Of a DNA stretch of 64,000 nt, positions 8,160 through 33,571 are shown one piece after another (the first letter of the stretch is position 1; every line of letters starts with the position of its first letter). Source of the DNA: an uncultured delta proteobacterium (GTDB taxonomy: Bacteria; Desulfobacterota; Desulfobacteria; Desulfobacterales; Desulfosarcinaceae). The position numbers and the translations under genes were made by a program. The notes under the pieces are model-generated. The model ran no database searches, was not told the origin of the DNA, and was given only the letters and a program-made list of their open reading frames with translations. The DNA lies in NCBI GenBank assembly GCA_963697225.1, contig CAVONM010000013.1, forward strand, positions 42,375 to 106,374, read 5' to 3'.

Positions 8160-11100
8160 TCAGCTTTCAGTTTGCTTGGCTATCGGCGGAAACGTCGTGG
8201 CCCGGGCGAAGGCCATGGCGAAATCAGGTTCGGAGGCCAGTTCCAGATAGCGGATGCGGCGGCTCAGGGCGCGGGCTTCCGATCTCAATTTTTTATCCAA
8301 GAGGGCCATTACGATCCCCACGCCTGCCAGATTTTCTCTGGGGATAACTTCTCCTTCGGCAACGACCGGCGGAAGCATGCCGATGGCCAGGGCGTTTTTC
8401 CAGTTGAAGCGGGCCCCGAAGGCACCGGTGAGGATGGTTCGGTCGATTTTTTCGATGCCTGCCTTGCGCATGAGAAATTCGATGCCCGTGATAAGCGCCC
8501 CCTTGGCCAGTTGAATCTGGCGGACGTCTTTCAAGGTGACTGCAATATCGCTGCCGGTGGTGGTTTGATCGCTGCTTGCGATGGTGTAGTGGCGTCCGAT
8601 GCCCGCTTGGTCGGAAACCACCCCGTCGATGGTCTCATCCAGCCGGCCGTTGGGCAGGATGGCCCCGATGTGGCGCAGGGCGGCGATGGCGTCTATGATG
8701 CCTGAGCCGCAAATGCCCATGGGCCTGTTTTGTCCGTCATTTCCCAGTACTTCGTAGTCAATGCGGCGGCTGCCTTTATCCGGCCATGCACGATGGATGG
8801 CGCCGGAGACCGCACGCATGCCGCAGGAGATCTGGGCCCCTTCCAGTGCCGGACCGGTGGCGCAGCTGGTGACCCACAATCCTTCCCGGTTGCCCAGCAC
8901 CACCTCGCCGTTGGTGCCGATATCCACAATGAGGGTGATCTCGTCGCGTTCGTGGGGTCGGTCGGCCAGAATGGCGGCCATGGTGTCTCCACCCACAAAA
9001 CCCGACACGACCGGCATGAAAAATACCGAAACGGCCGGATCGGTGACCAGCCCCAGATCTCCGGCGCTGAATGGCGGCGGGTTCAGTGTCAGGGGCAGAT
9101 AGGGGAAAACCCCCAGCCCATAGGGATGAAGCCCGGCAAAAACCTGCTGCATGGTGGTGTTGCCGCAGATGCCCACCTCATCGATGTCGCCGACTGTGGC
9201 GCCAACCTGTTCCAGGCAGCGGGTCATGAGAAAATTGATCGCTTCGGTGGCCAGATGTTGGAGTTGATCCAGGTGCGCATCCTTTTCGTTGATTCGGCTG
9301 ATGCGGCTGATCACGTCCTCGCCGAAGCGCCGTTGGGGATTGACACAGGCATCGGCGGCCAGCAGTGCGCCGGTCTCCAGATTGCACAGATAGCCTGCCA
9401 CCGACGTGGTGCCCAGGTCAACGGCGAACCCGAGGCCGGGGGTTTGCCTGCCTGCCAAAATACGGTGTAGGCCGGTCTCTTCGTGCACCACCAGGGTGAA
9501 GGCTTTCAGGCTGTCGCGATATTTGGCCAGCTGCCGCAAGGATGCAATATCGGCAGCCGAGGCGGCCGGTTCGCCGACCTGCGCAGCCAGCCAGTCCAGC
9601 AGGCTTTCCGGGACGTGGTCTGTTTTCAGGCCCGGCGAGCGGTCTTCAACGGCCAGGCGCCGGGTCATGGCATCCACTGGATAGCTGCCAGCGATGCCGG
9701 TTTTGCCTCTTGCTTCGGAATTTCCAGCCAAGGTGTCGGGGATGGTGACCGTTCCTTTGCCGATGGCCCGGGCCTGGCAGGCCAGCCGGGATCCATCGGC
9801 CATTTGATCAGGTGTGAGCACATCCAGTTCCGCCTGGGTGGCTGAAGAGAAATTCGCCTTGGGATGGACGATAACGCGGCACTTGCCGCAGACCCCCATG
9901 CCGCCGCAGTCGGCACGGATGTCGATGCTATGCGCGGCACCCAGTTCCTGGAGGGTTTGCTCTTCCTCTATGGCTACCTTGAGACCGGCCGGTTCGAAGG
10001 TGACCTGGCGGATGTGGCTGAAATTTACGGTGCCAGCGGTGCTCATATCCGACCGATGTTTCTTTTCCCGGCTGCCGTCTGCCTCGACGGTGGTGTCTGC
10101 CCCCCCGGTGAGCAAAAAACTATCGCTGCCATAGGTTTTCACCCGATCCGCTGCCGTAAACCAGCCGCTGCTGCGTACCTGCAGTTCCCGGGAAAGAAAG
10201 GCTGATCGTACATCTAACCGACCACCGGCCACACGCCACTGGATGCAGCGGTAAGGCGTGAAGCCCGCTTCGCTTTTCGATCGGCTGCGGGTGGCGATAC
10301 CGCCGGTTTCGGTGGACCCGTAGACCTCCACCAGATCCACGCCCGTTGCCTTGGAAAATGCCGCGCCGTCGGCTTCGGCCAGTGGGCCGGCCGAGGAAAA
10401 AGCCAGCCGCAGGGCGCCTTTTCCCGGCGGGTTTTCTCTGAGCGCCTGGTAGTGGACCGGCACGCCCACGAAAATGGTGGGTGACGTGTCGGTCATTTGA
10501 CGTTTGATCGCTTCGGGAAAGGAGGGGGTCTGTGCCACCACCCGGGCAGATGCCACCAGGGGTACCAGCAGGGAATAGAGCAGCCCGTAAATCTGCAGGG
10601 CCGGCACGCTGGCCAGAATGCGGTCGCCGCTGCTGATCTCGTAACACTTTATCAGATAGTCCACTTCGCCCAGCAGATTGCGCGGCGTCTTGGACCACAG
10701 GCGCGGGGCGCCGGTGGATCCGCCGGTGAGTAGAACCACCCAGGGCCGGTCAGCATTGGGCGCTTCGTCAGGCGCCAGGGCCTCCGCTTCGTCGTCCAGT
10801 TGCTGGGGTTCGATGACCGTAATCGTTGTCGGCAAGGGTGCTGGGGGACGTGTGATGATTCGGGTGAAGCCGGTCCGGCGATGAAGTTCGGAAACTGTGT
10901 TTGCTGAGAAGTCATCAGGAATCAGCAAGCTCGGACCGTCGACGAGTGTCGCCAGTATGGCCGCGGCCAATACCGAGCGATCATCCGTACCCATGCATAC
11001 CGGGGCCTTGTCTTCGCCGTCGCTGGTCAGCACCGCCCGAATCCGTCTGGCCATCCGGTAGATCCCATCGTAATTGATGCCGGGCATGGTAAATGCCTGA

Positions 11101-11177
11101 CCGGGTCGTTCCGGTCCCGACAATAGCCGTTGCATTCGCATCACCACCGGATCGGTCTTTTTCTTTGCCTCGGTCAT
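8160..11177 (-). CDS. Fusion protein: N-terminal adenylate-forming (AMP-binding) domain + plant-type [2Fe-2S] ferredoxin domain + C-terminal ASKHA ATPase of the RACo/DUF4445 type
   Basis: AMP-binding motifs LLTGGSTGAPRLWSKT and VYGSTETGG are present. The ferredoxin Cys motif is CGGMGVCGKCRV...LACQA. The ASKHA phosphate loops are FAVDLGTTSVAGYL...NPQRRFGEDVISRI and IVDIGTNGEVVLG. Confidence 0.8.
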   Translation of the reverse strand: MTEAKKKTDPVVMRMQRLLSGPERPGQAFTMPGINYDGIYRMARRIRAVLTSDGEDKAPVCMGTDDRSVLAAAILATLVDGPSLLIPDDFSANTVSELHRRTGFTRIITRPPAPLPTTITVIEPQQLDDEAEALAPDEAPNADRPWVVLLTGGSTGAPRLWSKTPRNLLGEVDYLIKCYEISSGDRILASVPALQIYGLLYSLLVPLVASARVVAQTPSFPEAIKRQMTDTSPTIFVGVPVHYQALRENPPGKGALRLAFSSAGPLAEADGAAFSKATGVDLVEVYGSTETGGIATRSRSKSEAGFTPYRCIQWRVAGGRLDVRSAFLSRELQVRSSGWFTAADRVKTYGSDSFLLTGGADTTVEADGSREKKHRSDMSTAGTVNFSHIRQVTFEPAGLKVAIEEEQTLQELGAAHSIDIRADCGGMGVCGKCRVIVHPKANFSSATQAELDVLTPDQMADGSRLACQARAIGKGTVTIPDTLAGNSEARGKTGIAGSYPVDAMTRRLAVEDRSPGLKTDHVPESLLDWLAAQVGEPAASAADIASLRQLAKYRDSLKAFTLVVHEETGLHRILAGRQTPGLGFAVDLGTTSVAGYLCNLETGALLAADACVNPQRRFGEDVISRISRINEKDAHLDQLQHLATEAINFLMTRCLEQVGATVGDIDEVGICGNTTMQQVFAGLHPYGLGVFPYLPLTLNPPPFSAGDLGLVTDPAVSVFFMPVVSGFVGGDTMAAILADRPHERDEITLIVDIGTNGEVVLGNREGLWVTSCATGPALEGAQISCGMRAVSGAIHRAWPDKGSRRIDYEVLGNDGQNRPMGICGSGIIDAIAALRHIGAILPNGRLDETIDGVVSDQAGIGRHYTIASSDQTTTGSDIAVTLKDVRQIQLAKGALITGIEFLMRKAGIEKIDRTILTGAFGARFNWKNALAIGMLPPVVAEGEVIPRENLAGVGIVMALLDKKLRSEARALSRRIRYLELASEPDFAMAFARATTFPPIAKQTES

Positions 11178-12455: not shown

Positions 12456-15400
12456 TTACCTGGGCCTGGCCACGTGCCAAATCATATCCGTCCGGTTTCC
12501 GGAGGTCAGGCAGGTGAGTATTTCGAATCCGCATTTGTCGAGGGTGGTGCGGATTGCCGTTTGGCTGCGGCAGCAAGCCTGACGTCCGCCTATTCTGAGC
12601 GCCAAATGCACTAGCTGCCGGCGCCAGTGGGGTCTGTTCGACCGGGGCAGCAGCGATCGCATGATCAGACGACCACCGGGAAGCAGGCGCTCATGGATGC
12701 GTTCCAGGGTTTTTTCCAACTCCCAGTCCTGCAGGAAGTGACCTACGTCGATCATGGTCGCCAGATTCAGCAGCACATCCATTGCCGGCAAATCGGGTGC
12801 GGATCCCCTGACGATGCGCCCCTGTTCGCCCAACACCAGGGCAGCCACCCGCACCCGCTCGGGCTGCGGATCGATGCCGTGGATGGTGGCGTGGGGATAA
12901 TGCTCGGCCAGCCAGCAGGCCGACACGCCGTACCCGCAGCCCACATCCAGGATGTTGGCCAGGTCGGTTTTTTTCGGCACCAGTGCCGCCAGCTCACTCA
13001 AGAGCGGGTCCACCCGTTGCGAGTAGTGGGCAAACAGGCGCGGGCAGGGCGCCATGTTGCGGTAGCGCCAGGCGACGCCTTCGGCGGCTGGGGGTGGATT
13101 TTCGAACCGTCGTTTCAACAAAGGGGGCAGGATCAGCAGCGTGCCGACAAGGCAATAGCCGATGCCGAAAAAGGAGATCTGTCCGGCGCTTTTCAACAGA
13201 TCATGATCGGCGCCCCAGATTGCGGCAGCACCCACCAGGGTGCAACCGGCGGCCATGACCAGTGCCGTTCGAACCACCGAGAAACAGGGATTGTCGAACC
13301 GCTGGTAGCGCTGGTATCCCCGGACCATGAGCAGGGGACTGCATACGCCCACGCCCAGTATGATTACCGACAGCAGCATCAGTGCGGTGAGGTTTAGTGG
13401 GTGGCCCAACATGCCCATGGTGCCCAACGTACAAATATAGGCGAAGGCCGGGGGCAGCAGGGCAATGAGCAGCAGGCCCATATCGGCCATATAGAAGGCC
13501 AGCAGAAAGGTCAGGACTGCCCCGATGAGCAGCAGCATCGCGATAAGTCCATCGTACAGCCGTTTTTCCATGCGTTGGGAGAGGTGTGCCGGATCGAATA
13601 TAGCCGATATGTCGGATATCCGGTCGTAAAATCGCTGGTTGTCAAAGTGCACACGGGGGGTGATGCGGGTTACCTGGCGCCATTGACCGTCGTTTCCGTC
13701 CCTATGGATACCCAGCAGCGTCTGTACGCTCGGCGGGATGGTGGTCGGGTGGGGGGATGCGGCGGTGATCATGGTCAAAAACGGGTCAAATACACCCTCG
13801 GCAAACCCCTGGGCCGCGCCTTCCCGATTCACCGCCGCGCTGACCATGCGGACGCGTTCCGCGGTCCAGAATTGGTTCCAGGCGTCGAAATTGTCTGCGC
13901 TGCGGCTGCGTCCGGGCCAAAACAGGGATGGTGTCAATGCCTTTTCGATGCTGCCGGCGTGGGTTTCGGTTTCGAGTCGCTCCAGCAACCGGTCGTTTTT
14001 GGCCTGAAGGGCGGCCAGGTCGTTTGCCTCGGTCACCAGATAGACGCTGGAAAAAATGTCACCCCACACACGGGTGATCAATTCCTCCGCCGCACGCGTT
14101 TCCCGGCTGACGCCGCTCATGGCTTTCGGGTCCGTGGCAATGTGGGGCCGGATGAAAAGGGACAGCCCCACCGCAGTCAACAGGGCCAACGCCAGTCCCG
14201 GCCAGCCGGCTGAAAAGAGACGGCCCAGCAGCCGTGGAAAACGGCGTTCGGCAGGCACCGCACGGTGCTGGTCGTCCGTCAGGATCCGGGGGAAGACGGT
14301 GTGGACGAACAGGCAGGAAAAGCCGATCCCCATTGCAGTAACCCACCCTATTTGTTCGAAAACGGCAACGCCGCGGGCGGCCATGGCGCCGAAGACACCG
14401 ATGGTGGTGAGCACGGCCGGCAGCCCGATGGCCCGGATTTCACGGGAGGCCTGCCTTGTCCGTTTTTTACCGCCATTGTCGACAAAGAGCATGTAGGCGA
14501 TGCCGTGGTGTATGGTGATCGAAACCATTACACTCCCGAAGCCCAGTACCATGATGGAAATGCTGTCGTGACTCAATGAAAAGACGAAAACGGCCATGAC
14601 TGTCCCGACCAGTGCCGGCAACAGGGCCAACAGTCCCGCCAGAGGATTGGAAAAGGCGGCCAGCAGCAGTACACCGATGCCCACCGCGGTCCACCGGATG
14701 GCCCGATGCACGTCCCGTTTAACGATGGTTTCGTTGTCCAGGGTGGAACGAAAGGTTCCTGCGGTGGTCAGGGTGATCCCACTGCCGATATTTTGTTTCA
14801 GGCCCTCATCCAGTTCGTGGAAGAATCCTGTCAGGGCGCGCGCCACGGTCGTGTCCGTGCCGTGACCGATCGGGGTGGCCAGGATCAGCAGGTGGCGGTG
14901 GTCGGCGGAGAGAAAACGGCCGCGGTGAATGGTCGTCCCGGGTGTTGGATTCATGGCGGCCAGTCGGGAGAGGATGCTCTGGCGCAGACCCAGCGGGTCG
15001 GTGGCCAATGCCGATGCTGGACTGATGCCGGCCATCCGGTTGTGGTCAGCCCCGCTCCTGGTCAGGGCTTGATGAATTGCCTCGTCGGTCAACAACGGGG
15101 CGACCTGCTGCGCCAACTCCCCCGCGGTAAACAATACAGGCAGATGATGGCAGACCAGATCCGCCAGATCGACAAGTCCCTGCTGCATAGACGGATGTTG
15201 CCTCTGCGCGAACAGGTCGCTTTGCTTCATCCGGTTTTCGACCATTTCTGCGGCGGCGACCAGTCGTGACATATCCCCCTTGATGGATTCGATGTCGATG
15301 GCGATTTGATTGGTTTTTATGATGCCCAGTCCGTCGGCAATCTCAGGGTTGTCCGTGAACAGCGGGCCTGGCATGTCATTATCGATGGTGATGCGGTTGA

Positions 15401-15479
15401 ATGCGACCAGGAAAAGGGTCGCACCGATGAGGGTGACCGCTGCCAGCGCAAACATGTTGATGGACGAATTCAGTCGCAT
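12456..15479 (-). CDS. MMPL/RND-like 'predicted exporter' (COG4258-type, two 6-TM bundles) fused to a C-terminal class I SAM-dependent methyltransferase domain
   Basis: About 800 aa of membrane protein with two transmembrane clusters separated by periplasmic-like domains. The C-terminal ILDVGCGYGVSACWLAEHYPHATIHGIDPQPERV...LPGGRLIM is SAM-MTase motif I plus post-I. Confidence 0.75.
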   Translation of the reverse strand: MRLNSSINMFALAAVTLIGATLFLVAFNRITIDNDMPGPLFTDNPEIADGLGIIKTNQIAIDIESIKGDMSRLVAAAEMVENRMKQSDLFAQRQHPSMQQGLVDLADLVCHHLPVLFTAGELAQQVAPLLTDEAIHQALTRSGADHNRMAGISPASALATDPLGLRQSILSRLAAMNPTPGTTIHRGRFLSADHRHLLILATPIGHGTDTTVARALTGFFHELDEGLKQNIGSGITLTTAGTFRSTLDNETIVKRDVHRAIRWTAVGIGVLLLAAFSNPLAGLLALLPALVGTVMAVFVFSLSHDSISIMVLGFGSVMVSITIHHGIAYMLFVDNGGKKRTRQASREIRAIGLPAVLTTIGVFGAMAARGVAVFEQIGWVTAMGIGFSCLFVHTVFPRILTDDQHRAVPAERRFPRLLGRLFSAGWPGLALALLTAVGLSLFIRPHIATDPKAMSGVSRETRAAEELITRVWGDIFSSVYLVTEANDLAALQAKNDRLLERLETETHAGSIEKALTPSLFWPGRSRSADNFDAWNQFWTAERVRMVSAAVNREGAAQGFAEGVFDPFLTMITAASPHPTTIPPSVQTLLGIHRDGNDGQWRQVTRITPRVHFDNQRFYDRISDISAIFDPAHLSQRMEKRLYDGLIAMLLLIGAVLTFLLAFYMADMGLLLIALLPPAFAYICTLGTMGMLGHPLNLTALMLLSVIILGVGVCSPLLMVRGYQRYQRFDNPCFSVVRTALVMAAGCTLVGAAAIWGADHDLLKSAGQISFFGIGYCLVGTLLILPPLLKRRFENPPPAAEGVAWRYRNMAPCPRLFAHYSQRVDPLLSELAALVPKKTDLANILDVGCGYGVSACWLAEHYPHATIHGIDPQPERVRVAALVLGEQGRIVRGSAPDLPAMDVLLNLATMIDVGHFLQDWELEKTLERIHERLLPGGRLIMRSLLPRSNRPHWRRQLVHLALRIGGRQACCRSQTAIRTTLDKCGFEILTCLTSGNRTDMIWHVARPR

Positions 15480-25293: not shown

Positions 25294-25791
25294 TGGCAGA
25301 GCTTTCGCTTTAGGTCAAAAGTCTTATGCGAAGCGGCGCGAAACGGGTTCCAGGGTTCATGGCCTGACTGCGCCTGCTCATGCGAGCAGGCCATAAACCA
25401 TGAAATGGGCAATCACCCGGCAATCGAAACCAGGGATGCTTTTCCGATATACGCCATGGTCTCTTCATACTTGTCCCGCTTGCTGTATATTGAACCCCGC
25501 CATGAAAAGAGGAACGTATCAGTGTCAGATCAATCGGCGGGCATCGTTGATGCATGTCATTTGCGTCCATACATGTTCAATACTATAATGAGATAATCAC
25601 GAAAAACCAATACCCAAACGGAACCTACTGACCCCTGACGCTGTCGGCTGAAAATTGACTTCTCTATGACAATGGTCATCCTAAATGGGTAGCCCGGTCA
25701 ACCCGATCCACGCAAGCAATCGCGACACACCCATTTCATGTGCAAATTCATTTGCAAACGGGTTACCATACAAATGAGGAGTTCAGTCGCC

Positions 25792-26505
25792 ATGAACGCG
25801 CCGCCGGCAGCAATAGTAACACCTGATGCAGGGCCCCTGTCTATCCATGCCCACCGCCTGACCCGCATATACACGGTCGGTTCGGTGCAGGTGACCGGTA
25901 TCGACAGGATCGATCTTTCCGTTGTCCGGGGCCAGTTGGTGGTGCTCAAGGGCGACAGCGGTTCGGGGAAAAGCACGCTGCTATCGTTGTTGGCCGGGTT
26001 GGACCGGCTCTCCACCGGGGAGCTGGTCGTGGCCGGCCACGACCTGAATCACTGCAGGGAAGCCGAACTGACCGACTTTCGACGCAATACCGTCGGTATG
26101 ATCTTTCAGGCTTTCAATCTGCTGCCGACGTTGACCGTGCTGGAAAACGTCTGCCTGCCTGCACTCCTGGCCGGCCGCGCCTTCCGTGCAGTTCGATCCA
26201 GGGCAGAGGAACTGCTCGACTGGCTCGGCCTGGGCGACCGCCTCAACCACCAGCCGCGTCAGCTCTCCGGCGGAGAAATGCAGCGCAGCGCCATCGCCCG
26301 GGCGCTGATCAATGATCCGGCCATCGTTCTGGCCGACGAGCCCACGGGGAACCTGGACTCACGCAATGCCCGCAAGGTCATGGCCCTGCTGGCCGATCTG
26401 AACCGCCGGTTCGACCGGACCGTCGTGATTGCCACCCACAGCGACCTGGCTGACGAATACGCCACCATGGTGCTCAGGCTGCGAGACGGCCGCGTGGCCC
26501 CATGA
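25792..26505 (+). CDS. ABC transporter ATP-binding protein (LolD/MacB/AttE-like)
   Basis: Walker A GDSGSGKSTLL, signature LSGGEMQR, Walker B IVLADEPTGNLD. GAGGAG RBS before the ATG at 25792. Confidence 0.85.
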   Translation: MNAPPAAIVTPDAGPLSIHAHRLTRIYTVGSVQVTGIDRIDLSVVRGQLVVLKGDSGSGKSTLLSLLAGLDRLSTGELVVAGHDLNHCREAELTDFRRNTVGMIFQAFNLLPTLTVLENVCLPALLAGRAFRAVRSRAEELLDWLGLGDRLNHQPRQLSGGEMQRSAIARALINDPAIVLADEPTGNLDSRNARKVMALLADLNRRFDRTVVIATHSDLADEYATMVLRLRDGRVAP

Positions 26506-29105
26506 ACGGCGCCATGGCGACGATGTCGGGCGGCCTGCGCCTGTTTGGCTGGTTCACCCTGCGTCACCTGCGCAGCCACATGGGTCGGACCCTGGCGGTG
26601 CTGCTGGGAATTGCCCTGGGTGCGGCGGTCTTCACCAGTGTCCGCCTGGCCGTGCAGGCCACCATGGATTCCTATTCGCGAAGCATGGACCTGATCGCCG
26701 GCAGCAGCGACCTGACCCTGTTCCGCCCCGGCGGCCGGGTCCCCGATACGCTGGTGGCGGCGCTGATGCAGAACCCGTTTGTCCTCACGGCGTCGCCGGT
26801 TCTGTCTGCCTATGTCAGACCGGCCGACCATGAAACCCCCTTCCTGTTGATCGGTTTCGATCCCATCCTGGATCGCGATCTGCGCAGGTGGACCGTTCAA
26901 TCCACGGGTGAAGGCAAGGCGGCCGACTGGGCGTCGATGATGACCCAGCCCTTTTCCTTGCTGATCGGGGCGAAACTGGGCCAACAGTTCGGCTGGCAAG
27001 AGGGCCAATCGATCAAGCTGGTTCACTCCCGGCAGACCCTGGATTTCAAGGTCCTGGCCCTGCTGGATCCCGGCGGGCTGGCTTTGGTGGAGGGTGGTCG
27101 CATCGCCATGTGCGACATTGCCACCTTCCAGGAATTCACCGGCCAGTTCGGCCTGGCGGACCGCATCGACATACGATTGAAGCCTGACGCTGCAGGGGAC
27201 GCATCGACCACCCTGCAAGCGCTGCTGCCCGCCGGCGTCGTCATGCGGTCGCCCTCGGCGCTCAGTGAAAGCGGCCAGGGAATGATCCGGGCCTACCAGC
27301 TCAGTCTTACCTTTTTGAGTTTCATATCCCTGTTCGTGGGCATGTTTCTGGTCTACAGCCTGGTGGCGCTCAATGCCGCCGCCCGTCGACGCGAGCTGGC
27401 GGTCATGCGGGCCACCGGTGCGTCGGGGCGGCTGCTCTTTTTCCTGTTCGTGGGCGAAGGGGCCTTTATCGGCCTGTGCGGATGGCTGTTGGCCCTGCCG
27501 ATCAGCAGCCTGCTGGTCAAAACCCTGCTGGCGGGTGTCAGCCGGACCGTGTCCGTGCTTTTCGTTCGCGTGCAGGTGGATGGACTGACCCTGGACCCCT
27601 GGGAAATTCTGCTCTCCTTTGGCGTCACCCTGGCCGTTTCCGTGCTGGCGTCCCTGCAGCCGGCTCGCGAGGCCATGCAAGTACCTCCGCGAGAAGCGCT
27701 GGACATCTCCCCCACCGCCAATATACGGCCGCGACTGATTCGTCGCATGGCCCTGGGGGGCCTCGGCCTGCTGTTGCTGGTCTATCCCATCGCCCGGCTG
27801 CCCAGCCCGCCGTCGGTCTCCCTGCCCGGGTACCTGGCGGCGTTGCTGTTGTTTGTGGGCTTCGCGCTATTGGCTCCCCTGATGTTGCAGCAAGTCGGCC
27901 GGCTGATGGCCCCGCGGTTGCTGTACCTGGGCGGCCAACCGGCTTTTTTGGCCGCCGGTTACCTCAAACAAAGCGGTGTCCAGACCGCCATTTCCGTGGG
28001 CTCACTGATCACGGCGGTGGCCCTGTTTACCGCCCTGGTGGTCATGATTCACAGCTTCCGCAGCACCGTGGCCCTGTGGGTGCAGCAGAGCATCGCCGGC
28101 GACATCTACATTCGCCCCAAACTGGCCGAACTGAATCGTTTCCGTGACCCGTTGCCGCCGCGTGTCGTGGCAGCGGTGCAGACTCTGCCGGTTCCCGTTG
28201 AACTGGTGCCCATGCATCGCCTGGAATTGCAGGTCAACGGACACCAGCACCTATTCGAGGCCATGGATTACGACGCCTATGCCAGGCGCAGCCGATTTAT
28301 CTGGATGGGCGGCGACATCCGGCAAATCGAAGCCGATCTGATCGCCGGCAGGGGCGTCGCGGTATCGGAGGTCTTCGCCAACAGCACCGGTCTGAAAGCC
28401 GGCGACCGCTATCGGGTCCAGATCGGCAGGCATCTGTTCGACGAACCGATCCTGGGAATCTTTCGCGACTACCGTACCCGGGGCGGCGCGGTGTATTATT
28501 CGCTGACCCACTACCAACGGCGCTTCGACGATCCGACCTGGAGCGGCGTTCAGGTCAATTTAACCGAGCGCGGGCCCGGTCTGGCGGGTGCCGTCGACCG
28601 GGTGCACACCGCGCTTCTGGATTGCTGCGGGGAGACGATCGAGATGATGGAGGGCCCGAGCCTGCGCCAGGCCGTCCTGCAGGTATTCGACGAAACTTTT
28701 GCTATCACCACCGTCCTGCTGCTGATTGCCCTGGTGGTGGCCGCCCTGGGAATCGCCACCACCCTGGCCGTGCTGGTGCTCCAGCGCCGCCGGCAGCTCA
28801 ACACCATCCGCGCCGTGGGCGGCAGTGCCGCCCAGCTGCGGCGCATGATTTTCTGGGAAGCGGGCCTGATCGTGATGGTAGGCCAGGCAGCCGGGCTGGC
28901 CTGCGGGTTCATCCTGTCGACCCTGCTGATCTTCGTCGTCAACCGGCAATCGTTTGGATGGACCTTCGTCTACCAGGTCGACTGGCCGTCTCTGCTCGCA
29001 GCCGTGCCGTTGATTTTCGCTGCGGCCCTGCTGGCCGCCCTGCCGGCGGTCAATCTGGCCCTGAGCTCGTCACCGGCCATGCTGCTGCGCGGGGGAACCC
29101 GTTAA
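26502..29105 (+). CDS. ABC transporter permease with duplicated FtsX/MacB-like domains (about 860 aa, YbbP/AttFG-like)
   Basis: Two FtsX-type 4-TM modules separated by large extracytoplasmic domains. Overlaps the ATPase gene by 4 nt. Confidence 0.8.
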   Translation: MNGAMATMSGGLRLFGWFTLRHLRSHMGRTLAVLLGIALGAAVFTSVRLAVQATMDSYSRSMDLIAGSSDLTLFRPGGRVPDTLVAALMQNPFVLTASPVLSAYVRPADHETPFLLIGFDPILDRDLRRWTVQSTGEGKAADWASMMTQPFSLLIGAKLGQQFGWQEGQSIKLVHSRQTLDFKVLALLDPGGLALVEGGRIAMCDIATFQEFTGQFGLADRIDIRLKPDAAGDASTTLQALLPAGVVMRSPSALSESGQGMIRAYQLSLTFLSFISLFVGMFLVYSLVALNAAARRRELAVMRATGASGRLLFFLFVGEGAFIGLCGWLLALPISSLLVKTLLAGVSRTVSVLFVRVQVDGLTLDPWEILLSFGVTLAVSVLASLQPAREAMQVPPREALDISPTANIRPRLIRRMALGGLGLLLLVYPIARLPSPPSVSLPGYLAALLLFVGFALLAPLMLQQVGRLMAPRLLYLGGQPAFLAAGYLKQSGVQTAISVGSLITAVALFTALVVMIHSFRSTVALWVQQSIAGDIYIRPKLAELNRFRDPLPPRVVAAVQTLPVPVELVPMHRLELQVNGHQHLFEAMDYDAYARRSRFIWMGGDIRQIEADLIAGRGVAVSEVFANSTGLKAGDRYRVQIGRHLFDEPILGIFRDYRTRGGAVYYSLTHYQRRFDDPTWSGVQVNLTERGPGLAGAVDRVHTALLDCCGETIEMMEGPSLRQAVLQVFDETFAITTVLLLIALVVAALGIATTLAVLVLQRRRQLNTIRAVGGSAAQLRRMIFWEAGLIVMVGQAAGLACGFILSTLLIFVVNRQSFGWTFVYQVDWPSLLAAVPLIFAAALLAALPAVNLALSSSPAMLLRGGTR

Positions 29106-29135
29106 TAATACTTGGTTGGAGGGGAAATTATAAAA

Positions 29136-30271
29136 TGGGACGCTGCAGGAATTTCAGCCTTCTTGTCCGGACCGCGTTGCTGATTGCGCTTTCCGCCTTT
29201 ACGGCGATTGCGGCAGACAACGGATTTCTGCAGGTCACCGGCCCCTGCCGGCTCTTCTTTCCCGCCGATCACGGCCCCCACACGGATTACCGCACCGAAT
29301 GGTGGTATTACACGGGTAATCTGACCGACGGAGACAACAACCGCTTCGGCTTTCAGCTGACCTTTTTCCGCAGCGGGCTGCAACCGCCCGACCAACGCAG
29401 ACAGTGGCCGGATCCGGCCTCGGCCTGGCGCACCGACCAGATTTACCTGGCCCATGCCGCGGTCAGCGATATCGACGGCGGCCGCCACTTGCAGGCTGAG
29501 CGGATGGCTCGTCCGGTTCTCTCCCTGGCCGGGGCGGACCAGGTGGGTGGCCTGGTAACCATCCACGTCCATGGCTGGCAGGCCGTCATTGCGCCCGAGG
29601 CGCATCGCCTGCAGGCCAGCGCCGAAGCGTTTGCCCTGACCCTCGACCTGACACCGGACAAGCCTATTGTCCTGCACGGTGACAGCGGATACAGCCGCAA
29701 AGGTCAGTCGCCCGAGCACGCCAGCTGCTACTACTCTTTTACCCGCCTGCTGGCCTCGGGCAGCCTGACCGTGGACGGTACCCGCCATGAGGTTCAGGGA
29801 TCGGCCTGGATGGACCACGAGTTCAGCACGGCTCCCCTGCAGCCGGGCATCACCGGCTGGGATTGGTTCAGCCTGCAGTTGGGTGACCGGACCGAGATCA
29901 TGATCTTTTTACTGCGTCAACCGGACGGGACCTTGAATCCGGCCTCCAGCGGTACGTACGTGCTACCCTCGGGGCAGACGCGGCACCTGTCGCGCGGCGA
30001 TGTGCGCATCGAGCCACTTTCGCATTGGACCAGTCCCATCAGCGGCGCCCGCTACCCGGTCGAGTGGCAGGTGGCCGTGGTTCCACTGGACGTGGAGCTG
30101 ACCGTAACGGCCAACCTTGACGACCAGGAGATGCGCACCCCGAACAGCACCAATGTAGTTTACTGGGAAGGCAGCGTGCAGGCCAAGGGAACCCGCAACG
30201 AAAAGGCGATCGATGGCGTCGGTTATGTGGAGCTGACCGGTTATGCCCGACCGTTCGATGCACCCATGTAA
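29136..30271 (+). CDS. AttH-like lipocalin/CrtC-domain (hydroxyneurosporene synthase-like) secreted protein
   Basis: Signal peptide. Motifs TEWWYYTGNL, RFGFQLTFFR, GSAWMDHEF. ABC-ATPase / FtsX permease / AttH-like is the attEFGH-type gene order. Confidence 0.6.
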
Positions 30272-30350
30272 GCTAACACACCCCTGGTTTGACAACGCAG
30301 GTCGTGTGGATAGCTTACTTCATTATTCACCCGGGCAAACAGGAGGCGAT

Positions 30351-30839
30351 ATGAAAGCAATTACCGCCACCATCGCACTGATGTTCATCGGCGTTTCGAT
30401 GGCCGCCGCTGCCGGCAGCCCGTCCGTCAAACCGTCGGTTTCGAAAGATGCGCAATACTACAATGCAGGCGTTGACTTGATGCTGGCCAAGAAATTTACC
30501 GATGCGGAAAAGCAGTTCCGCAAAGCCCTTGAACGCAACGAGCGCTTCGCCGAAGCTCACAACAAGCTGGCCTACACCCTGCGAAAACAGGGTCCAGATC
30601 ACTACGCCGAGGCCCTCGAACACTATAACCGGGCGATTGAATTGAAGCCGAACCTGGCTGAACCCTACATGTATCGCGGGGTGCTGCACATTCAGATGGG
30701 CAAACCCTCCCTTTCCCAGGAAGATCACAATAAACTCGTCGCCATGAATTCGCCCCTGGCCGCTGAGCTGCAGTACGTGGTCGAAAACGGCCGCGAAAAA
30801 GAACCGGAACCGTTTTTCGGTGTGTCTCGTAAAATGTGA
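30351..30839 (+). CDS. Secreted TPR-repeat protein
   Basis: Signal peptide MKAITATIALMFIGVSMAAAAG, then TPR-like repeats. Confidence 0.55.
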   Translation: MKAITATIALMFIGVSMAAAAGSPSVKPSVSKDAQYYNAGVDLMLAKKFTDAEKQFRKALERNERFAEAHNKLAYTLRKQGPDHYAEALEHYNRAIELKPNLAEPYMYRGVLHIQMGKPSLSQEDHNKLVAMNSPLAAELQYVVENGREKEPEPFFGVSRKM

Positions 30840-30889
30840 TCTGGAAGATCAAGTGGGCCCAGACCGGGATTGACAAAATTGAGATTTGG

Positions 30890-30918
30890 ATGACAAGCGG
30901 TCGCGTATGTCGTATTAT
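30890..30918 (+). promoter_or_regulatory. Sigma70-like promoter candidate ATGACA-N17-TATTAT upstream of the hemerythrin/encapsulin operon
   Basis: Hexamers and spacing read from the sequence. About 110 nt upstream of the ATG at 31030. Confidence 0.3.
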
Positions 30919-31029
30919 ATCCCATAATCGCCTGATGTGCAGACGGGCCTTGTATGGCCTGTGAGAATGGTGGAAACCCCCGCCCATCGTCCCCACCACC
31001 AGACACCCAAATTTTCTAAAGGAGAACAT

Positions 31030-31545
31030 ATGGACATCATCGATGCATTGGTCGGTCACCACCAGGAACTCAGAAAACTCTACCAGGCGTCGGAAAGCGA
31101 TGCGGGCCGGTTCGCCGAATTTGTGCGTCACCTCGTGGTTCACCACACCATGGAGGAGAAGTACTTTTACGATTTGCTCCAGAAGGTCGCCGATGCCCGC
31201 CACGATTCCCTTGAAGCGGTCAACGAGCACCATATCATTGAATTGATCATCAAGGATGCCGAAGGATTTCCTAAAGATCACGAAGGCTTTCCCATCAAGG
31301 TGGAAGGCCTTGGCGAATACACCTCCCACCACCTGGACGAGGAGGAGGCGGAAATCTTTCCCATGGCGCGCGCCCGTTTCAGCCCCGAGGACCTGATGAT
31401 CCTGGGAAAGCTATTCCTCGAGGCCAAACAAAAAATGCTTGCCATTGAATTACCGGAGGTGCCTGCGCAGATCAATCAACGGGCTGCTGGCTCGAAACAG
31501 GTTCAGGCCAGCTCGCAAGGGCTTGGCATCGGCAGCTTGAAATAA
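31030..31545 (+). CDS. Hemerythrin-like (HHE cation-binding) protein with a C-terminal encapsulin targeting peptide: predicted encapsulin cargo
   Basis: Multiple H..E/HH pairs (VGHHQELR, LVVHHTMEEKY, EHHIIELI, SHHLDEEEAE). The C-terminus ...SSQGLGIGSLK matches the family-1 encapsulin cargo-loading peptide consensus (SLGIGSLK/R-like). Lies 46 nt upstream of the shell gene. Confidence 0.8.
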   Translation: MDIIDALVGHHQELRKLYQASESDAGRFAEFVRHLVVHHTMEEKYFYDLLQKVADARHDSLEAVNEHHIIELIIKDAEGFPKDHEGFPIKVEGLGEYTSHHLDEEEAEIFPMARARFSPEDLMILGKLFLEAKQKMLAIELPEVPAQINQRAAGSKQVQASSQGLGIGSLK

Positions 31546-31591
31546 CGACCCCGTCCGATTCATCTAAACATCTATCGAAAATGGAGAAACC

Positions 31592-32410
31592 ATGGATATA
31601 CTGAAAAGAGAGCTGGCACCGATTCCGCAGCAGGCTTGGGCTGAAATCGATGCGCAAGCGGCAAGAAGCCTGAAAGCGATCCTGTCGGCCAGAAAAGTCA
31701 TTGACCTGACAGGGCCCATGGGACCGGATTTTCCAGGAGTGCCCGAGGGACGCCTGGAATATCCGGGCAACCAGTCGCCAACCGGGCTGTCCTATGGCAT
31801 TCACAAGGTTCATCACCTGGTGGAGACCCGTATTCCCTTCGAACTGGACATCAAGGAGATGGACAATGCCGTCCGTGGGGCCAAAGACCTCGATTTGGCC
31901 AATCTGGAAGCCGCCGCACTGGAGATCGCCCTGTTTGAAGAGAGTGCGGTTTACCACGGACTGCCCCAGGCCAACATCAAAGGGCTCAAACATTGTGCTG
32001 ATCAGGAATGCCTGACCATCGGATCGACGCCGGAACAATTGCTCGAGGCTATCGCCGAGGGGCTGACTGTCTTCGCCGGCCGCTCCGTCGAAGGACCCTT
32101 CTCCTTTGTCGTGGGGCCTAAACTGTGGAGCCGGATGTCCGCACACCTGCAGGGCTACCCGGTTAAAATGCAGGCTGAGAATATCCTGGGCGGAACGGTG
32201 CTGCTTAGCCCCTATCTAACCGGCGATTTCGAGATGGAAGCATACATGGTCTCCCAGCGGGGCGGTGATTTCGAGATCATTTTGGGCAACGATCTGGCGA
32301 TCGGCTATGACAGCCATACGACCAGCACCGTCGGGCTTTACTTCACGGAATCCTTTACCTTTAGAATCCTCGATGCCGCCGGCGTCATTCATTTTACGGC
32401 TCAGGTGTAG
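31592..32410 (+). CDS. Family 1 encapsulin nanocompartment shell protein (Linocin M18 / HK97-fold)
   Basis: MDILKRELAPIPQQAWAEID... and C-terminal ...QRGGDFEIILGNDLAIGYDSH...FTESFTFRILD align closely with the Thermotoga maritima encapsulin that I recall ([20 protein letters not shown]...[22 protein letters not shown]...ITETFTFQVV). Confidence 0.9.
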   Translation: MDILKRELAPIPQQAWAEIDAQAARSLKAILSARKVIDLTGPMGPDFPGVPEGRLEYPGNQSPTGLSYGIHKVHHLVETRIPFELDIKEMDNAVRGAKDLDLANLEAAALEIALFEESAVYHGLPQANIKGLKHCADQECLTIGSTPEQLLEAIAEGLTVFAGRSVEGPFSFVVGPKLWSRMSAHLQGYPVKMQAENILGGTVLLSPYLTGDFEMEAYMVSQRGGDFEIILGNDLAIGYDSHTTSTVGLYFTESFTFRILDAAGVIHFTAQV

Positions 32411-32492
32411 GTCAATCCATCCACGGCGTAACAGAGACCACCGCCATGGCTGCTTAACCCAAAATCGAAGGAATAACTAAAGGAGGCTAACC

Positions 32493-32738
32493 ATGGTCGA
32501 CAAAGCGGCACTGTGTGAAAAAATAAAATCGATATACCCGGACATCGGCGAATGTGGCATCGACATCAAAGTGGATTATGACGATGAAAAGCGGACTACC
32601 ATTTTATACCTGCGCAGGGGCAACAAGGAAGTCAAGCACTACCTGCCGGATGAAGACGCGGAGGCATGTATGGCGGGGCGGCAGTGCGTCGCCCTGGGTG
32701 TGGAGATCGCCCAGCTCAGGGATGAGCGCTACCTCTGA
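32493..32738 (+). CDS. Small Cys-containing hypothetical protein (81 aa) immediately downstream of the encapsulin gene
   Basis: Strong AAAGGAGG RBS. Four Cys. No domain recognised. Confidence 0.35.
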   Translation: MVDKAALCEKIKSIYPDIGECGIDIKVDYDDEKRTTILYLRRGNKEVKHYLPDEDAEACMAGRQCVALGVEIAQLRDERYL

Positions 32739-33184
32739 TGGCAACCTGAACTTTAGCGGCACCCACCCAAAACCATTTTCGAATCGGAAAACTGCGGATA
32801 TAGCCGGCGTCGGCCAGTTGCGGCAGCAGGGTTCCGGCCTGGCGCAGGGAAAGCAGCAGGCCGACATAAACGGACGGGGCACAGATGGCGCCCAAGAGCC
32901 AGAGAAGCACCAACGTGGCGCTGGCCACCTGTTCAGCCAATCTGGAGGCAGCGCCGTTGAGCAAGTTCATCACGTACTTCTCAGGCGGTGCGCTGCATTC
33001 CGAATCGGGAATGGCTGAGCATGCCCTGTCGTAGCGGTCATCGCCGCTCAATTTCCCATAGACCCGCTCGACGTGGCTGGGCTTGGATGCCATGTCTTGT
33101 TCTCACTCGCTCCTTGCGTTAATCTTTGGCTTTGAAACTGGCCGAACCGCATGAAAAATGGACAATGCCCACTCTCGGGGCCAG

Positions 33185-33571
33185 CTATCCATCCGCTTGG
33201 CTTTCAAGGGCATGGCGCTTCAGCTGAGCCAAGGGGACGTGATTCAAGACCCTGCTGTGCGTGGCGGCAAGGATTACTGGCGGCGCGCAGCCGTTTTCTT
33301 CGGCCTCTTCCCATCGGTCGACACACAGGCACCAGCGATCTCCCGGCTTGAGTCCGGGAAAACCAGCTGTCGGCTGGGGCGTGCTTAGATCGTTGCCGCG
33401 ACGTCTGGTAAATTCCAGAAATGCATCGGTCACCTGGGCGCAGACGCCATGTCGACCGATGTCGCCGGGTCCAATGCGGCAGTCTCCGTCGCGCAGAAAA
33501 CCGGTCAATGGTTGCAGGCTGCATGTTTACAGCGATTCCCCGATAACGTTAACCGCTTTTTGGTTTGCCAT
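33185..33571 (-). pseudogene. DUF2237-family gene interrupted by an in-frame TAA after codon 14
   Basis: AAAGGAGG-N8-ATG at 33571 gives MANQKAVNVIGESL, then TAA (33529-33527). The same frame continues TCSLQPLTGFLRDGDC...GDRWCLCVDRWEEA, the DUF2237 signature. Confidence 0.5.

Follow-up and report, generated by a model that had tools for sequence, protein, structure and literature searches.

Results

A hemerythrin-like gene and a shell gene lie in tandem

The window, by which we mean the whole stretch of 64,000 nucleotides analyzed here (contig CAVONM010000013.1), contains four open reading frames (ORFs) of one strand (+) within positions 30351-32738. In order, they encode a TPR-repeat protein, a hemerythrin-like protein, an encapsulin shell protein, and an 81-amino acid protein with four cysteines. 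We interpret the two central genes as a two-gene family-1 encapsulin operon on the chromosome of a Desulfosarcina-like sulfate reducer, in which the hemerythrin-like protein would be the detoxifying cargo; we assign this reading a probability of roughly 80%. The original prediction for this locus had named a family-1 shell gene and, directly upstream of it, a hemerythrin-like gene ending in GLGIGSLK, together with a promoter-like ATGACA-N17-TATTAT element before the pair and a small ORF with four cysteines and a strong ribosome-binding site (RBS) behind it. All of these are present where it placed them. The start that it gave, position 30351, belongs to the separate TPR gene, which lies outside the system.

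The shell protein belongs to family 1

The shell protein matches the Pfam model Linocin_M18 (PF04454), the search proposed in the original prediction, over the full profile with E = 3e-70, and scores 235.7 bits, compared to a cutoff of 100, with the NCBIfam model NF041155 (encap_f1, ‘family 1 encapsulin nanocompartment shell protein’). In a search of all PDB chains, it aligned over its full length to solved family-1 shells, and 23 of 23 matches at E ≤ 1e-10 were family-1 shells. The matches include Thermotoga maritima (3DKT/7K5W; E = 1e-50), the entry ‘Linocin_M18 bacteriocin protein’ (7ODW; E = 3.5e-50), Mycobacterium tuberculosis Cfp29 (7P1T; E = 2e-45), a Klebsiella pneumoniae shell (8U50), and the ‘Linocin-M18’ entries 6I9G/7BCV (E about 1e-42), which we take to be the Brevibacterium linens shell. 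These comparisons confirm that the gene encodes a family-1 (classical) encapsulin shell protein. The shells of T. maritima, M. tuberculosis (Cfp29), B. linens and 7ODW are presumably all T=1. Because the matched shells that we can place are of this type, the analogy suggests that the window protein likewise forms a T=1 shell of 60 subunits.

Close relatives of the shell protein are now called ‘family 1 encapsulin nanocompartment shell protein’ at NCBI, and older records and JGI name them ‘bacteriocin family protein’ or ‘linocin/CFP29’. Hence the earlier expectation that pipelines label such a pair ‘Linocin M18 bacteriocin’ and ‘hemerythrin’ is outdated for the shell at NCBI, although it still describes the older and JGI names, and it holds for the cargo, which NCBI currently calls ‘hemerythrin domain-containing protein’. 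The cargo-shell link is not annotated. This link, rather than the naming of the shell, is the annotation gap that remains.

The cargo combines a conserved domain, a variable linker and an invariant tag

The program-made ORF list starts the gene 5′ of the shell at GTG 30937. We place its true start at ATG 31030, because an AAGGAG motif lies 5 nt before this codon and all 38 of 38 aligned homologues begin there. The resulting protein matches the Pfam Hemerythrin HHE model (PF01814) with E = 1e-13 and 52.3 bits (cutoff 25.3), and it ends in ...SSQGLGIGSLK. We used 39 homologues for an AlphaFold2 model, a conservation profile and a PDB profile search. The model (mean predicted local distance difference test score, pLDDT, 86; predicted template-modeling score 0.77) displays five helices over residues 3-137 and a short helix at 146-154. 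Toward the C-terminus confidence declines, with a block mean pLDDT of 58 for residues 151-160 and 41 for 161-170, and values below 50 for residues 156-171. Mean column conservation is 0.81 in the domain, 0.37-0.39 in the linker (0.37-0.49 over residues 138-163), and 0.99 in GLGIGSLK. The linker also differs in length by up to 14 residues: among homologues, 58 to 72 residues separate the EEE motif from the tag. An arrangement in which a conserved domain is followed by a variable, disordered linker and then by a short, invariant peptide at the C-terminus is the standard signature of a family-1 cargo.

The comparison with known targeting peptides, also suggested in the original prediction, yielded a match: GLGIGSLK contains the LGIGSLK core of the published consensus SDGSLGIGSLKRS, which Giessen and Silver derived from characterised cargos (10.1101/085266). 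A tail of the form GLGIG[SGKA][LI][KR], with or without one to five extra residues, is found in 35 of 37 orthologous loci; the tails of the other two, L033 and L037, are unreliable owing to a partial match and a frame problem. In a six-frame scan of the 64-kb window, the cargo is the sole ORF of at least 50 amino acids with an LGIGSL-type C-terminus, and the same scan revealed no further ORF with a tag-like end that could be a secondary cargo.

An exhaustive profile search with the cargo family against 1.84 billion cluster representatives returned 4,841 relatives at E ≤ 1e-3 but just 10 at E ≤ 1e-30. Among these representatives, only the top, tight cargo clade carries the tag, and the 150 best profile matches include no tag-bearing protein outside this Desulfobacterota-type clade. 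The next relatives (at most 118 bits; 139-177 amino acids) align to positions 1-137 and end there, without linker or tag. This suggests that the cargo is a free HHE protein to which a linker and a tag were appended.

With distant tag-less relatives included, H38, E42 and H67 still do not vary, and H11, H101 and E104-106 are almost invariant. Because these amino acids are retained across cargo and non-cargo relatives alike, they probably contribute the iron ligands, with H11, H38, E42, H67, H101 and E105 as the likely candidates; on this pattern of conservation, the cargo is predicted to bind iron. Y47 is invariant as well. The best fold match of the cargo model is 6Q09, the iron-bound hemerythrin-like protein (HLP) of Mycobacterium kansasii (Mka HLP), with a probability of 1.00 and a TM score of 0.66-0.69. 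The cargo's H11 and H38-x3-E42-x4-Y47 show the spacing of His11 and His45-Glu49-Tyr54 in Mka HLP, which we regard as a lead.

Cargo and shell genes are strictly paired across Desulfobacterota

We queried a scan of GTDB species-level genomes with the shell protein and retained 80 loci, with no Actinobacteria among them, against which we compared the four window proteins by tblastn. Shell identity is at least 70% in 37 of these loci and 44-50% in the other 43. In every one of the 37, all from Desulfobacterota (Desulfobacterales, Desulfobulbales and Syntrophobacterales-type metagenome-assembled genomes, MAGs), the cargo gene lies directly upstream of the shell gene. The closest are Desulfosarcina/Desulfobacteraceae MAGs with 94-97% shell identity. 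Three proteins of the locus are present in public collections, where their almost identical cluster members stem from Desulfosarcina sp. and Desulfobacteraceae MAGs. The spacer between the two genes measures 46 nt in the window and 27-93 nt in 35 related loci, which fits co-transcription. When we clustered ORFs of at least 70 amino acids, only cargo and shell were common to all 38 loci (the 37 and the window), supporting a core system of two genes. The identities of the genes, the domain-linker-tag anatomy of the cargo, and the strict gene pairing are read directly from sequence, and at this level the locus agrees with the family-1 and the hemerythrin-cargo encapsulin classes in every membership feature that we compared.

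The 43 loci at 44-50% shell identity (L038-L080) are mostly from Bacteroidota, with one Acidobacteriota and one Spirochaetaceae MAG, and tblastn detected no hemerythrin gene in any of them. Their upstream ORFs encode proteins of about 111-162 amino acids, in most cases about 115-125. The linker of these proteins is acidic or rich in His, and their tag is usually ...LGIGKIKK; five of five that we scanned are EncFtn (PF22277, E ~1e-40). The drop in shell identity from 70% to 50% thus coincides with a change of cargo type. The clade with the hemerythrin-like cargo is represented in at least 37 species-level genomes, and its proteins form 414 clusters at 90% identity.

Layout of the locus and promoter candidate

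The features of the locus are collected in Table 1.

Table 1. Features at the encapsulin locus, in window coordinates.
Feature	Positions	Strand	Evidence or remark
TPR-repeat protein gene, 162 aa	30351-30839	+	several TPR Pfam models, E down to 4e-14
Promoter candidate, sigma-70-like ATGACA-N17-TATTAT	30890-30918	+	10/12 consensus positions; 112 nt 5′ of cargo ATG
RBS of cargo gene, AAGGAG	31019-31024	+	invariant in 9 aligned close relatives
Cargo gene, 171-aa hemerythrin-like (HHE) predicted di-iron protein with C-terminal targeting peptide	31030-31545	+	PF01814
HHE helical-bundle domain, residues 1-137	31030-31440	+	mean column conservation 0.81
Variable linker, residues 138-163: one short helix, then disorder	31441-31518	+	pLDDT, conservation
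Targeting (cargo-loading) peptide GLGIGSLK	31519-31542	+	conservation 0.99
RBS of shell gene, GGAG, within 46-nt cargo-shell spacer	31583-31586	+	sequence
Family-1 encapsulin shell gene, 272 aa, HK97 fold	31592-32410	+	PF04454, NF041155
81-aa four-Cys ORF	32493-32738	+	AAGGAGG RBS; no family match

Taken alone, the ATGACA-N17-TATTAT element is weak evidence for a promoter, because our scan found 6 such promoter-like sites per 3.6 kb where 2.0 are expected. A TGACAA-N17-TA(C/T)TAT element is retained in the window and in five of the eight closest genomes (L004-L007, L036); L003 has a degraded form. L001 and L002 lack the entire region between the TPR and cargo genes, such that the TPR stop lies 14 nt from the cargo ATG. 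The operon can therefore evidently be expressed without the element, which is a plausible promoter candidate for the window strain but not a required one.

The TPR protein has a hydrophobic, signal-peptide-like N-terminus, and its gene adjoins the cargo gene only in the eight closest loci (shell identity of at least 94%). On both grounds, we rejected it as a component of the system.

Discussion

A detoxifying compartment is the most likely function

The hemerythrin (‘Heme’) core operon has been defined as a hemerythrin gene with a C-terminal tag directly 5′ of a T=1-cluster shell gene (10.1101/085266). The encapsulin of this kind from Streptomyces sp. AA4 was purified, with tag-dependent co-purification of the cargo and a loading of about 20 cargo molecules per 60-mer. 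Its shell shields the iron centre from dithionite, and in Escherichia coli it conferred H2O2 protection only when the cargo was encapsulated, as well as protection from NO (10.1101/085266). The window locus shares with AA4 the two-gene core, in which a hemerythrin-domain cargo directly precedes a family-1 shell, the LGIGSLK-type C-terminal peptide on a flexible linker, and a shell that groups with T=1-type encapsulins, and by analogy H2O2/NO protection would be expected here as well. The hosts differ: AA4 is an aerobic actinobacterium, whereas the window host is a strictly anaerobic sulfate reducer of the Desulfobacterota.

Guided by AA4 and the mycobacterial HLPs, we propose the following mechanism. 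The 272-amino acid shell protein would self-assemble, most likely into a 60-subunit T=1 icosahedron about 24 nm across, and would capture the co-expressed 171-amino acid di-iron protein as it does so. In this assembly, GLGIGSLK, carried on a flexible and little-conserved linker, would dock into the binding groove that each shell subunit presents on its inner face. H2O2, NO, and possibly O2 would then diffuse through the shell pores and react at the di-iron centre, which would protect the oxygen-sensitive anaerobe under oxidative or nitrosative stress. Detoxification of H2O2 and NO, possibly also of O2, inside the shell is by this analogy the most likely function; pure O2/NO binding and iron storage seem less likely to us.

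The proposed chemistry follows from the resemblance to the mycobacterial proteins. Mka HLP, an orthologue of Rv2633c, is a stand-alone five-helix protein without a fused domain, whose metal site consists of four His, two Glu, and a Tyr that replaces the fifth His (His11, His45, Glu49, Tyr54) (PMC6993866). Rv2633c is a non-haem di-iron catalase; Mka HLP has weak catalase activity and also acts as an NO peroxidase (PMC6993866; PMC8913304). The cargo is likewise predicted to be a stand-alone five-helix protein, has its best fold match in this group, and shares the H...H-x3-E-x4-Y spacing. Its predicted fold and His/Glu/Tyr spacing point to an Rv2633c-type catalase/NO peroxidase, not to an O2 carrier. 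Unlike the cargo, the mycobacterial HLPs are free proteins, lacking a linker, a targeting peptide, and a partner shell gene.

Several observations weigh against a detoxifying operon. The cargo resembles 6Q09 by fold only, with 15% identity and a Foldseek E = 8e-3. By sequence, both as a single query and as a 39-sequence profile, it retrieved only designed helical repeat proteins from the PDB (E ~0.1). Transfer of the catalase/NO-peroxidase activity to the cargo is for these reasons tentative, and we do not count the cargo as a member of the mycobacterial HLP class. In addition, two of the closest genomes (L001, L002) lack the promoter-like site, and neither a stress regulator nor a partner reductase is visible near the pair.

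Alternatively, the cargo could bind O2 or NO reversibly and without turnover, for buffering, sequestration or sensing, while the shell concentrates and protects the sites. The cargo domain does belong to the hemerythrin family, and Giessen and Silver considered that NO protection by the AA4 system may stem mainly from binding and sequestration (10.1101/085266). However, true O2-carrying hemerythrins use five His, a Glu and an Asp, whereas the conserved set in the cargo resembles four His and two Glu with an invariant Tyr; Rv2633c-type proteins showed no hemerythrin-like O2 spectra (PMC6993866); and some 20-60 binding sites per shell would provide a small buffering capacity. We therefore consider reversible binding rather unlikely.

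We judge it unlikely, too, that the compartment stores or mineralises iron, with the di-iron cargo acting as a ferroxidase in the manner of EncFtn/Flp rather than detoxifying reactive oxygen and nitrogen species. With the T=1 encapsulins of that type, such as that of T. maritima (3DKT, 7K5W), the window system has several features in common: the shells are homologous over their full length, the cargo gene precedes the shell gene, and the tags share the LGIG core. In favour of iron storage, the nearest shell relatives outside the clade carry EncFtn ferroxidases, the 2021 census by Andreas and Giessen placed hemerythrin cargos within the ferritin-like superfamily (PMC8346489), and iron handling is important in sulfidic habitats. 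By contrast, the cargo itself is a predicted five-helix protein that matches the HHE hemerythrin family (PF01814) and not EncFtn (PF22277) or ferritin models, its best structural relative is an HLP of the catalase/NO-peroxidase type, and the AA4 hemerythrin encapsulin was reported to protect from H2O2 and NO, not to mineralise iron (10.1101/085266). For the window system we expect detoxification instead. In this respect it would resemble the dye-decolourising peroxidase (DyP) systems of M. tuberculosis (Cfp29-DyP) and B. linens, which likewise pair a family-1 T=1 shell with an oxidative-stress enzyme that ends in a ...LGIGSLK-type tag, although their cargo is a haem enzyme and the window cargo a putative non-haem di-iron protein.

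It is conceivable, if doubtful, that the Desulfobacterota cargo was recruited separately from the actinobacterial ‘Heme’ cargos. A free HHE protein of the Rv2633c/Mka HLP type would then have gained a linker and a tag and replaced the EncFtn cargo in a shell lineage of the EncFtn type, and in Desulfosarcina the 81-amino acid protein might serve as an external reductant. If so, strict anaerobes would possess an encapsulated non-haem catalase/NO peroxidase.

The original prediction called hemerythrin-loaded encapsulins predicted but biochemically poorly characterised. This overstates the gap, given that the AA4 system has been purified and that the 2021 census counted 45 hemerythrin cargos, 42 from Actinobacteria and 3 from Proteobacteria (PMC8346489), but it rightly conveys that this established cargo class is thinly studied: one system has been characterised biochemically, and as of the census there was no structure of a hemerythrin-loaded encapsulin or its cargo (PMC8346489). 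Two Desulfobulbaceae/Desulfobacterales entries, labelled ‘Putative Ruberythrin / hypothetical’ in the census supplement (PMC8346489), may belong to the clade described here. With this locus, the class gains a clean example among strictly anaerobic sulfate reducers, in a clade far larger than the three proteobacterial cargos of 2021 suggest. The class itself is already described, and no new category is opened; mildly new are the extent of the Desulfobacterota clade, both in size and in range of hosts, and the resemblance of its predicted cargo to HLPs. For sediment anaerobes that meet pulses of O2, the system would add one piece to the oxygen-defence toolkit.

The small four-cysteine ORF is not a required component

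According to the original prediction, the 81-amino acid ORF might be a co-component. In such a three-component system, the four-cysteine protein would be a partner, for example a small redox protein with a metal or disulfide centre that returns the cargo to its reduced state, or else a secondary cargo. Its position is suggestive, as the ORF shares the strand of the shell gene and begins 82 nt behind the stop of that gene, with a strong AAGGAGG RBS. We found no convincing terminator between the two genes: the single candidate, a weak 6-bp stem, falls within the coding part of the shell gene, and the predicted fold of the spacer is no stronger than that of shuffled sequence (z = 0.64), which makes read-through transcription from the shell gene possible in this genus. 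The four cysteines are invariant across 389 homologues, mostly from Desulfobacterales where the source is named, and the ORF adjoins the pair in the window and in all eight closest genomes.

Those eight genomes all have at least 94% shell identity, however, and in the other 29 of 37 loci the ORF was not found within 5 kb of the cargo-shell pair, so its adjacency tracks recent common ancestry only. More distant homologues (L081-L086) have fumarase C and aconitase genes as neighbours or occur in unrelated contexts, and none of them adjoins an encapsulin gene. Some directly precede fumarase C and follow aconitase, an arrangement that hints at a role linked to the tricarboxylic acid cycle or to redox chemistry and unrelated to the encapsulin. 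In contigs of the Olavius symbiont Delta 3 type (L084-L086), an 80-amino acid homologue is followed by fumarase, a PAS/cyclic-nucleotide (cNMP) protein, and an epimerase. Because this order partly mirrors the succession of the 81-amino acid ORF, DUF2237, epimerase and PAS genes in the window, the ORF looks anchored to the downstream synteny block.

The protein itself offers no link to the compartment either. It is annotated as a hypothetical protein throughout its family and matches no Pfam or NCBIfam model. Its AlphaFold2 model (pLDDT 78) places helices on either side of a three-stranded sheet and has no significant match among PDB folds (best E = 0.03, TM below 0.5). Its termini (MVDKAALCEK... 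and ...AQLRDERYL) contain no targeting motif of the LGIG or TVGSL type. The comparative evidence thus speaks against a required role, and a three-component system appears very unlikely: of what was originally said about this ORF, the cysteines and the RBS stand, and the proposed part in the compartment is not supported.

One homologue of the family, P0078, is 126 amino acids long and carries an extension of about 45 residues that ends in ...REYCNIHGLWKG. The extension has a precomputed match to PF01880 (desulfoferrodoxin/neelaredoxin), corresponding to a C-terminal superoxide-reductase-like motif fragment. P0078 derives from one contig of only 1.5 kb; a true fusion is possible, but we regard it as a probable artefact of gene calling or assembly.

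Genomic surroundings

Upstream, the neighbours of the pair encode an ABC ATPase, a MacB/FtsX permease, and a CrtC-like lipocalin protein; downstream follow genes for DUF2237, an NAD-dependent epimerase, a PAS protein and a DegV/Dak2 protein. Farther out lie genes for Lon protease, a fumarate reductase/succinate dehydrogenase flavoprotein, and inositol-phosphate synthase. That the shell might be a remnant HK97 major capsid of a prophage next to an unrelated hemerythrin gene, a notion that could draw on the fold shared by encapsulins and phage capsids and on a very weak, below-cutoff match to the Pfam model Major_capside (E = 0.025), is excluded by the absence of phage genes among these ordinary chromosomal neighbours (the TPR gene included) and contradicted by the score with the curated family-1 model and the strict pairing with a tag-bearing cargo.

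The DUF2237 gene (33185-33508, − strand) has counterparts in other loci: with the window counted, 10 of 38 have such a gene no more than 5 kb from the hemerythrin-encapsulin pair. In two distant loci with 72% shell identity (L023 3834-4142 and L025 3856-4167), it lies just upstream on the opposite strand. This recurrence could reflect conserved synteny or a loose functional link; at 10 of 38 loci, it is too sparse for a component, and we rejected it as such.

A 125-amino acid ORF (32716-33093, − strand) converges on the 81-amino acid ORF, and the 3′ end of the latter lies within it for 23 nt. This convergent ORF contains hydrophobic, membrane-like segments, has no Pfam match, and is conserved (~79%) in L004-L006 alone; L036 has a partial match. 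Possibly it encodes a small membrane protein, or it is a gene remnant.

The guanine-plus-cytosine content is 0.64 in 26000-30250, which holds the MacB/FtsX permease and CrtC-like lipocalin genes downstream of the ABC ATPase gene (25738-26505), and 0.544 in 30250-32750, which holds the TPR gene, the cargo-shell pair and the 81-amino acid ORF; the window mean is 0.577. The shift in composition lies at ~30200.

Two long ORFs elsewhere in the window, each of ~1,005 amino acids and on the − strand, display unusual domain combinations. The first (8160-11177) joins an AMP-binding domain and a 2Fe-2S ferredoxin domain to the middle and C-terminal domains of RACo, the reductive activator of corrinoid enzymes. 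The second (12456-15479) combines an MMPL-type membrane domain with a C-terminal S-adenosylmethionine (SAM) methyltransferase.

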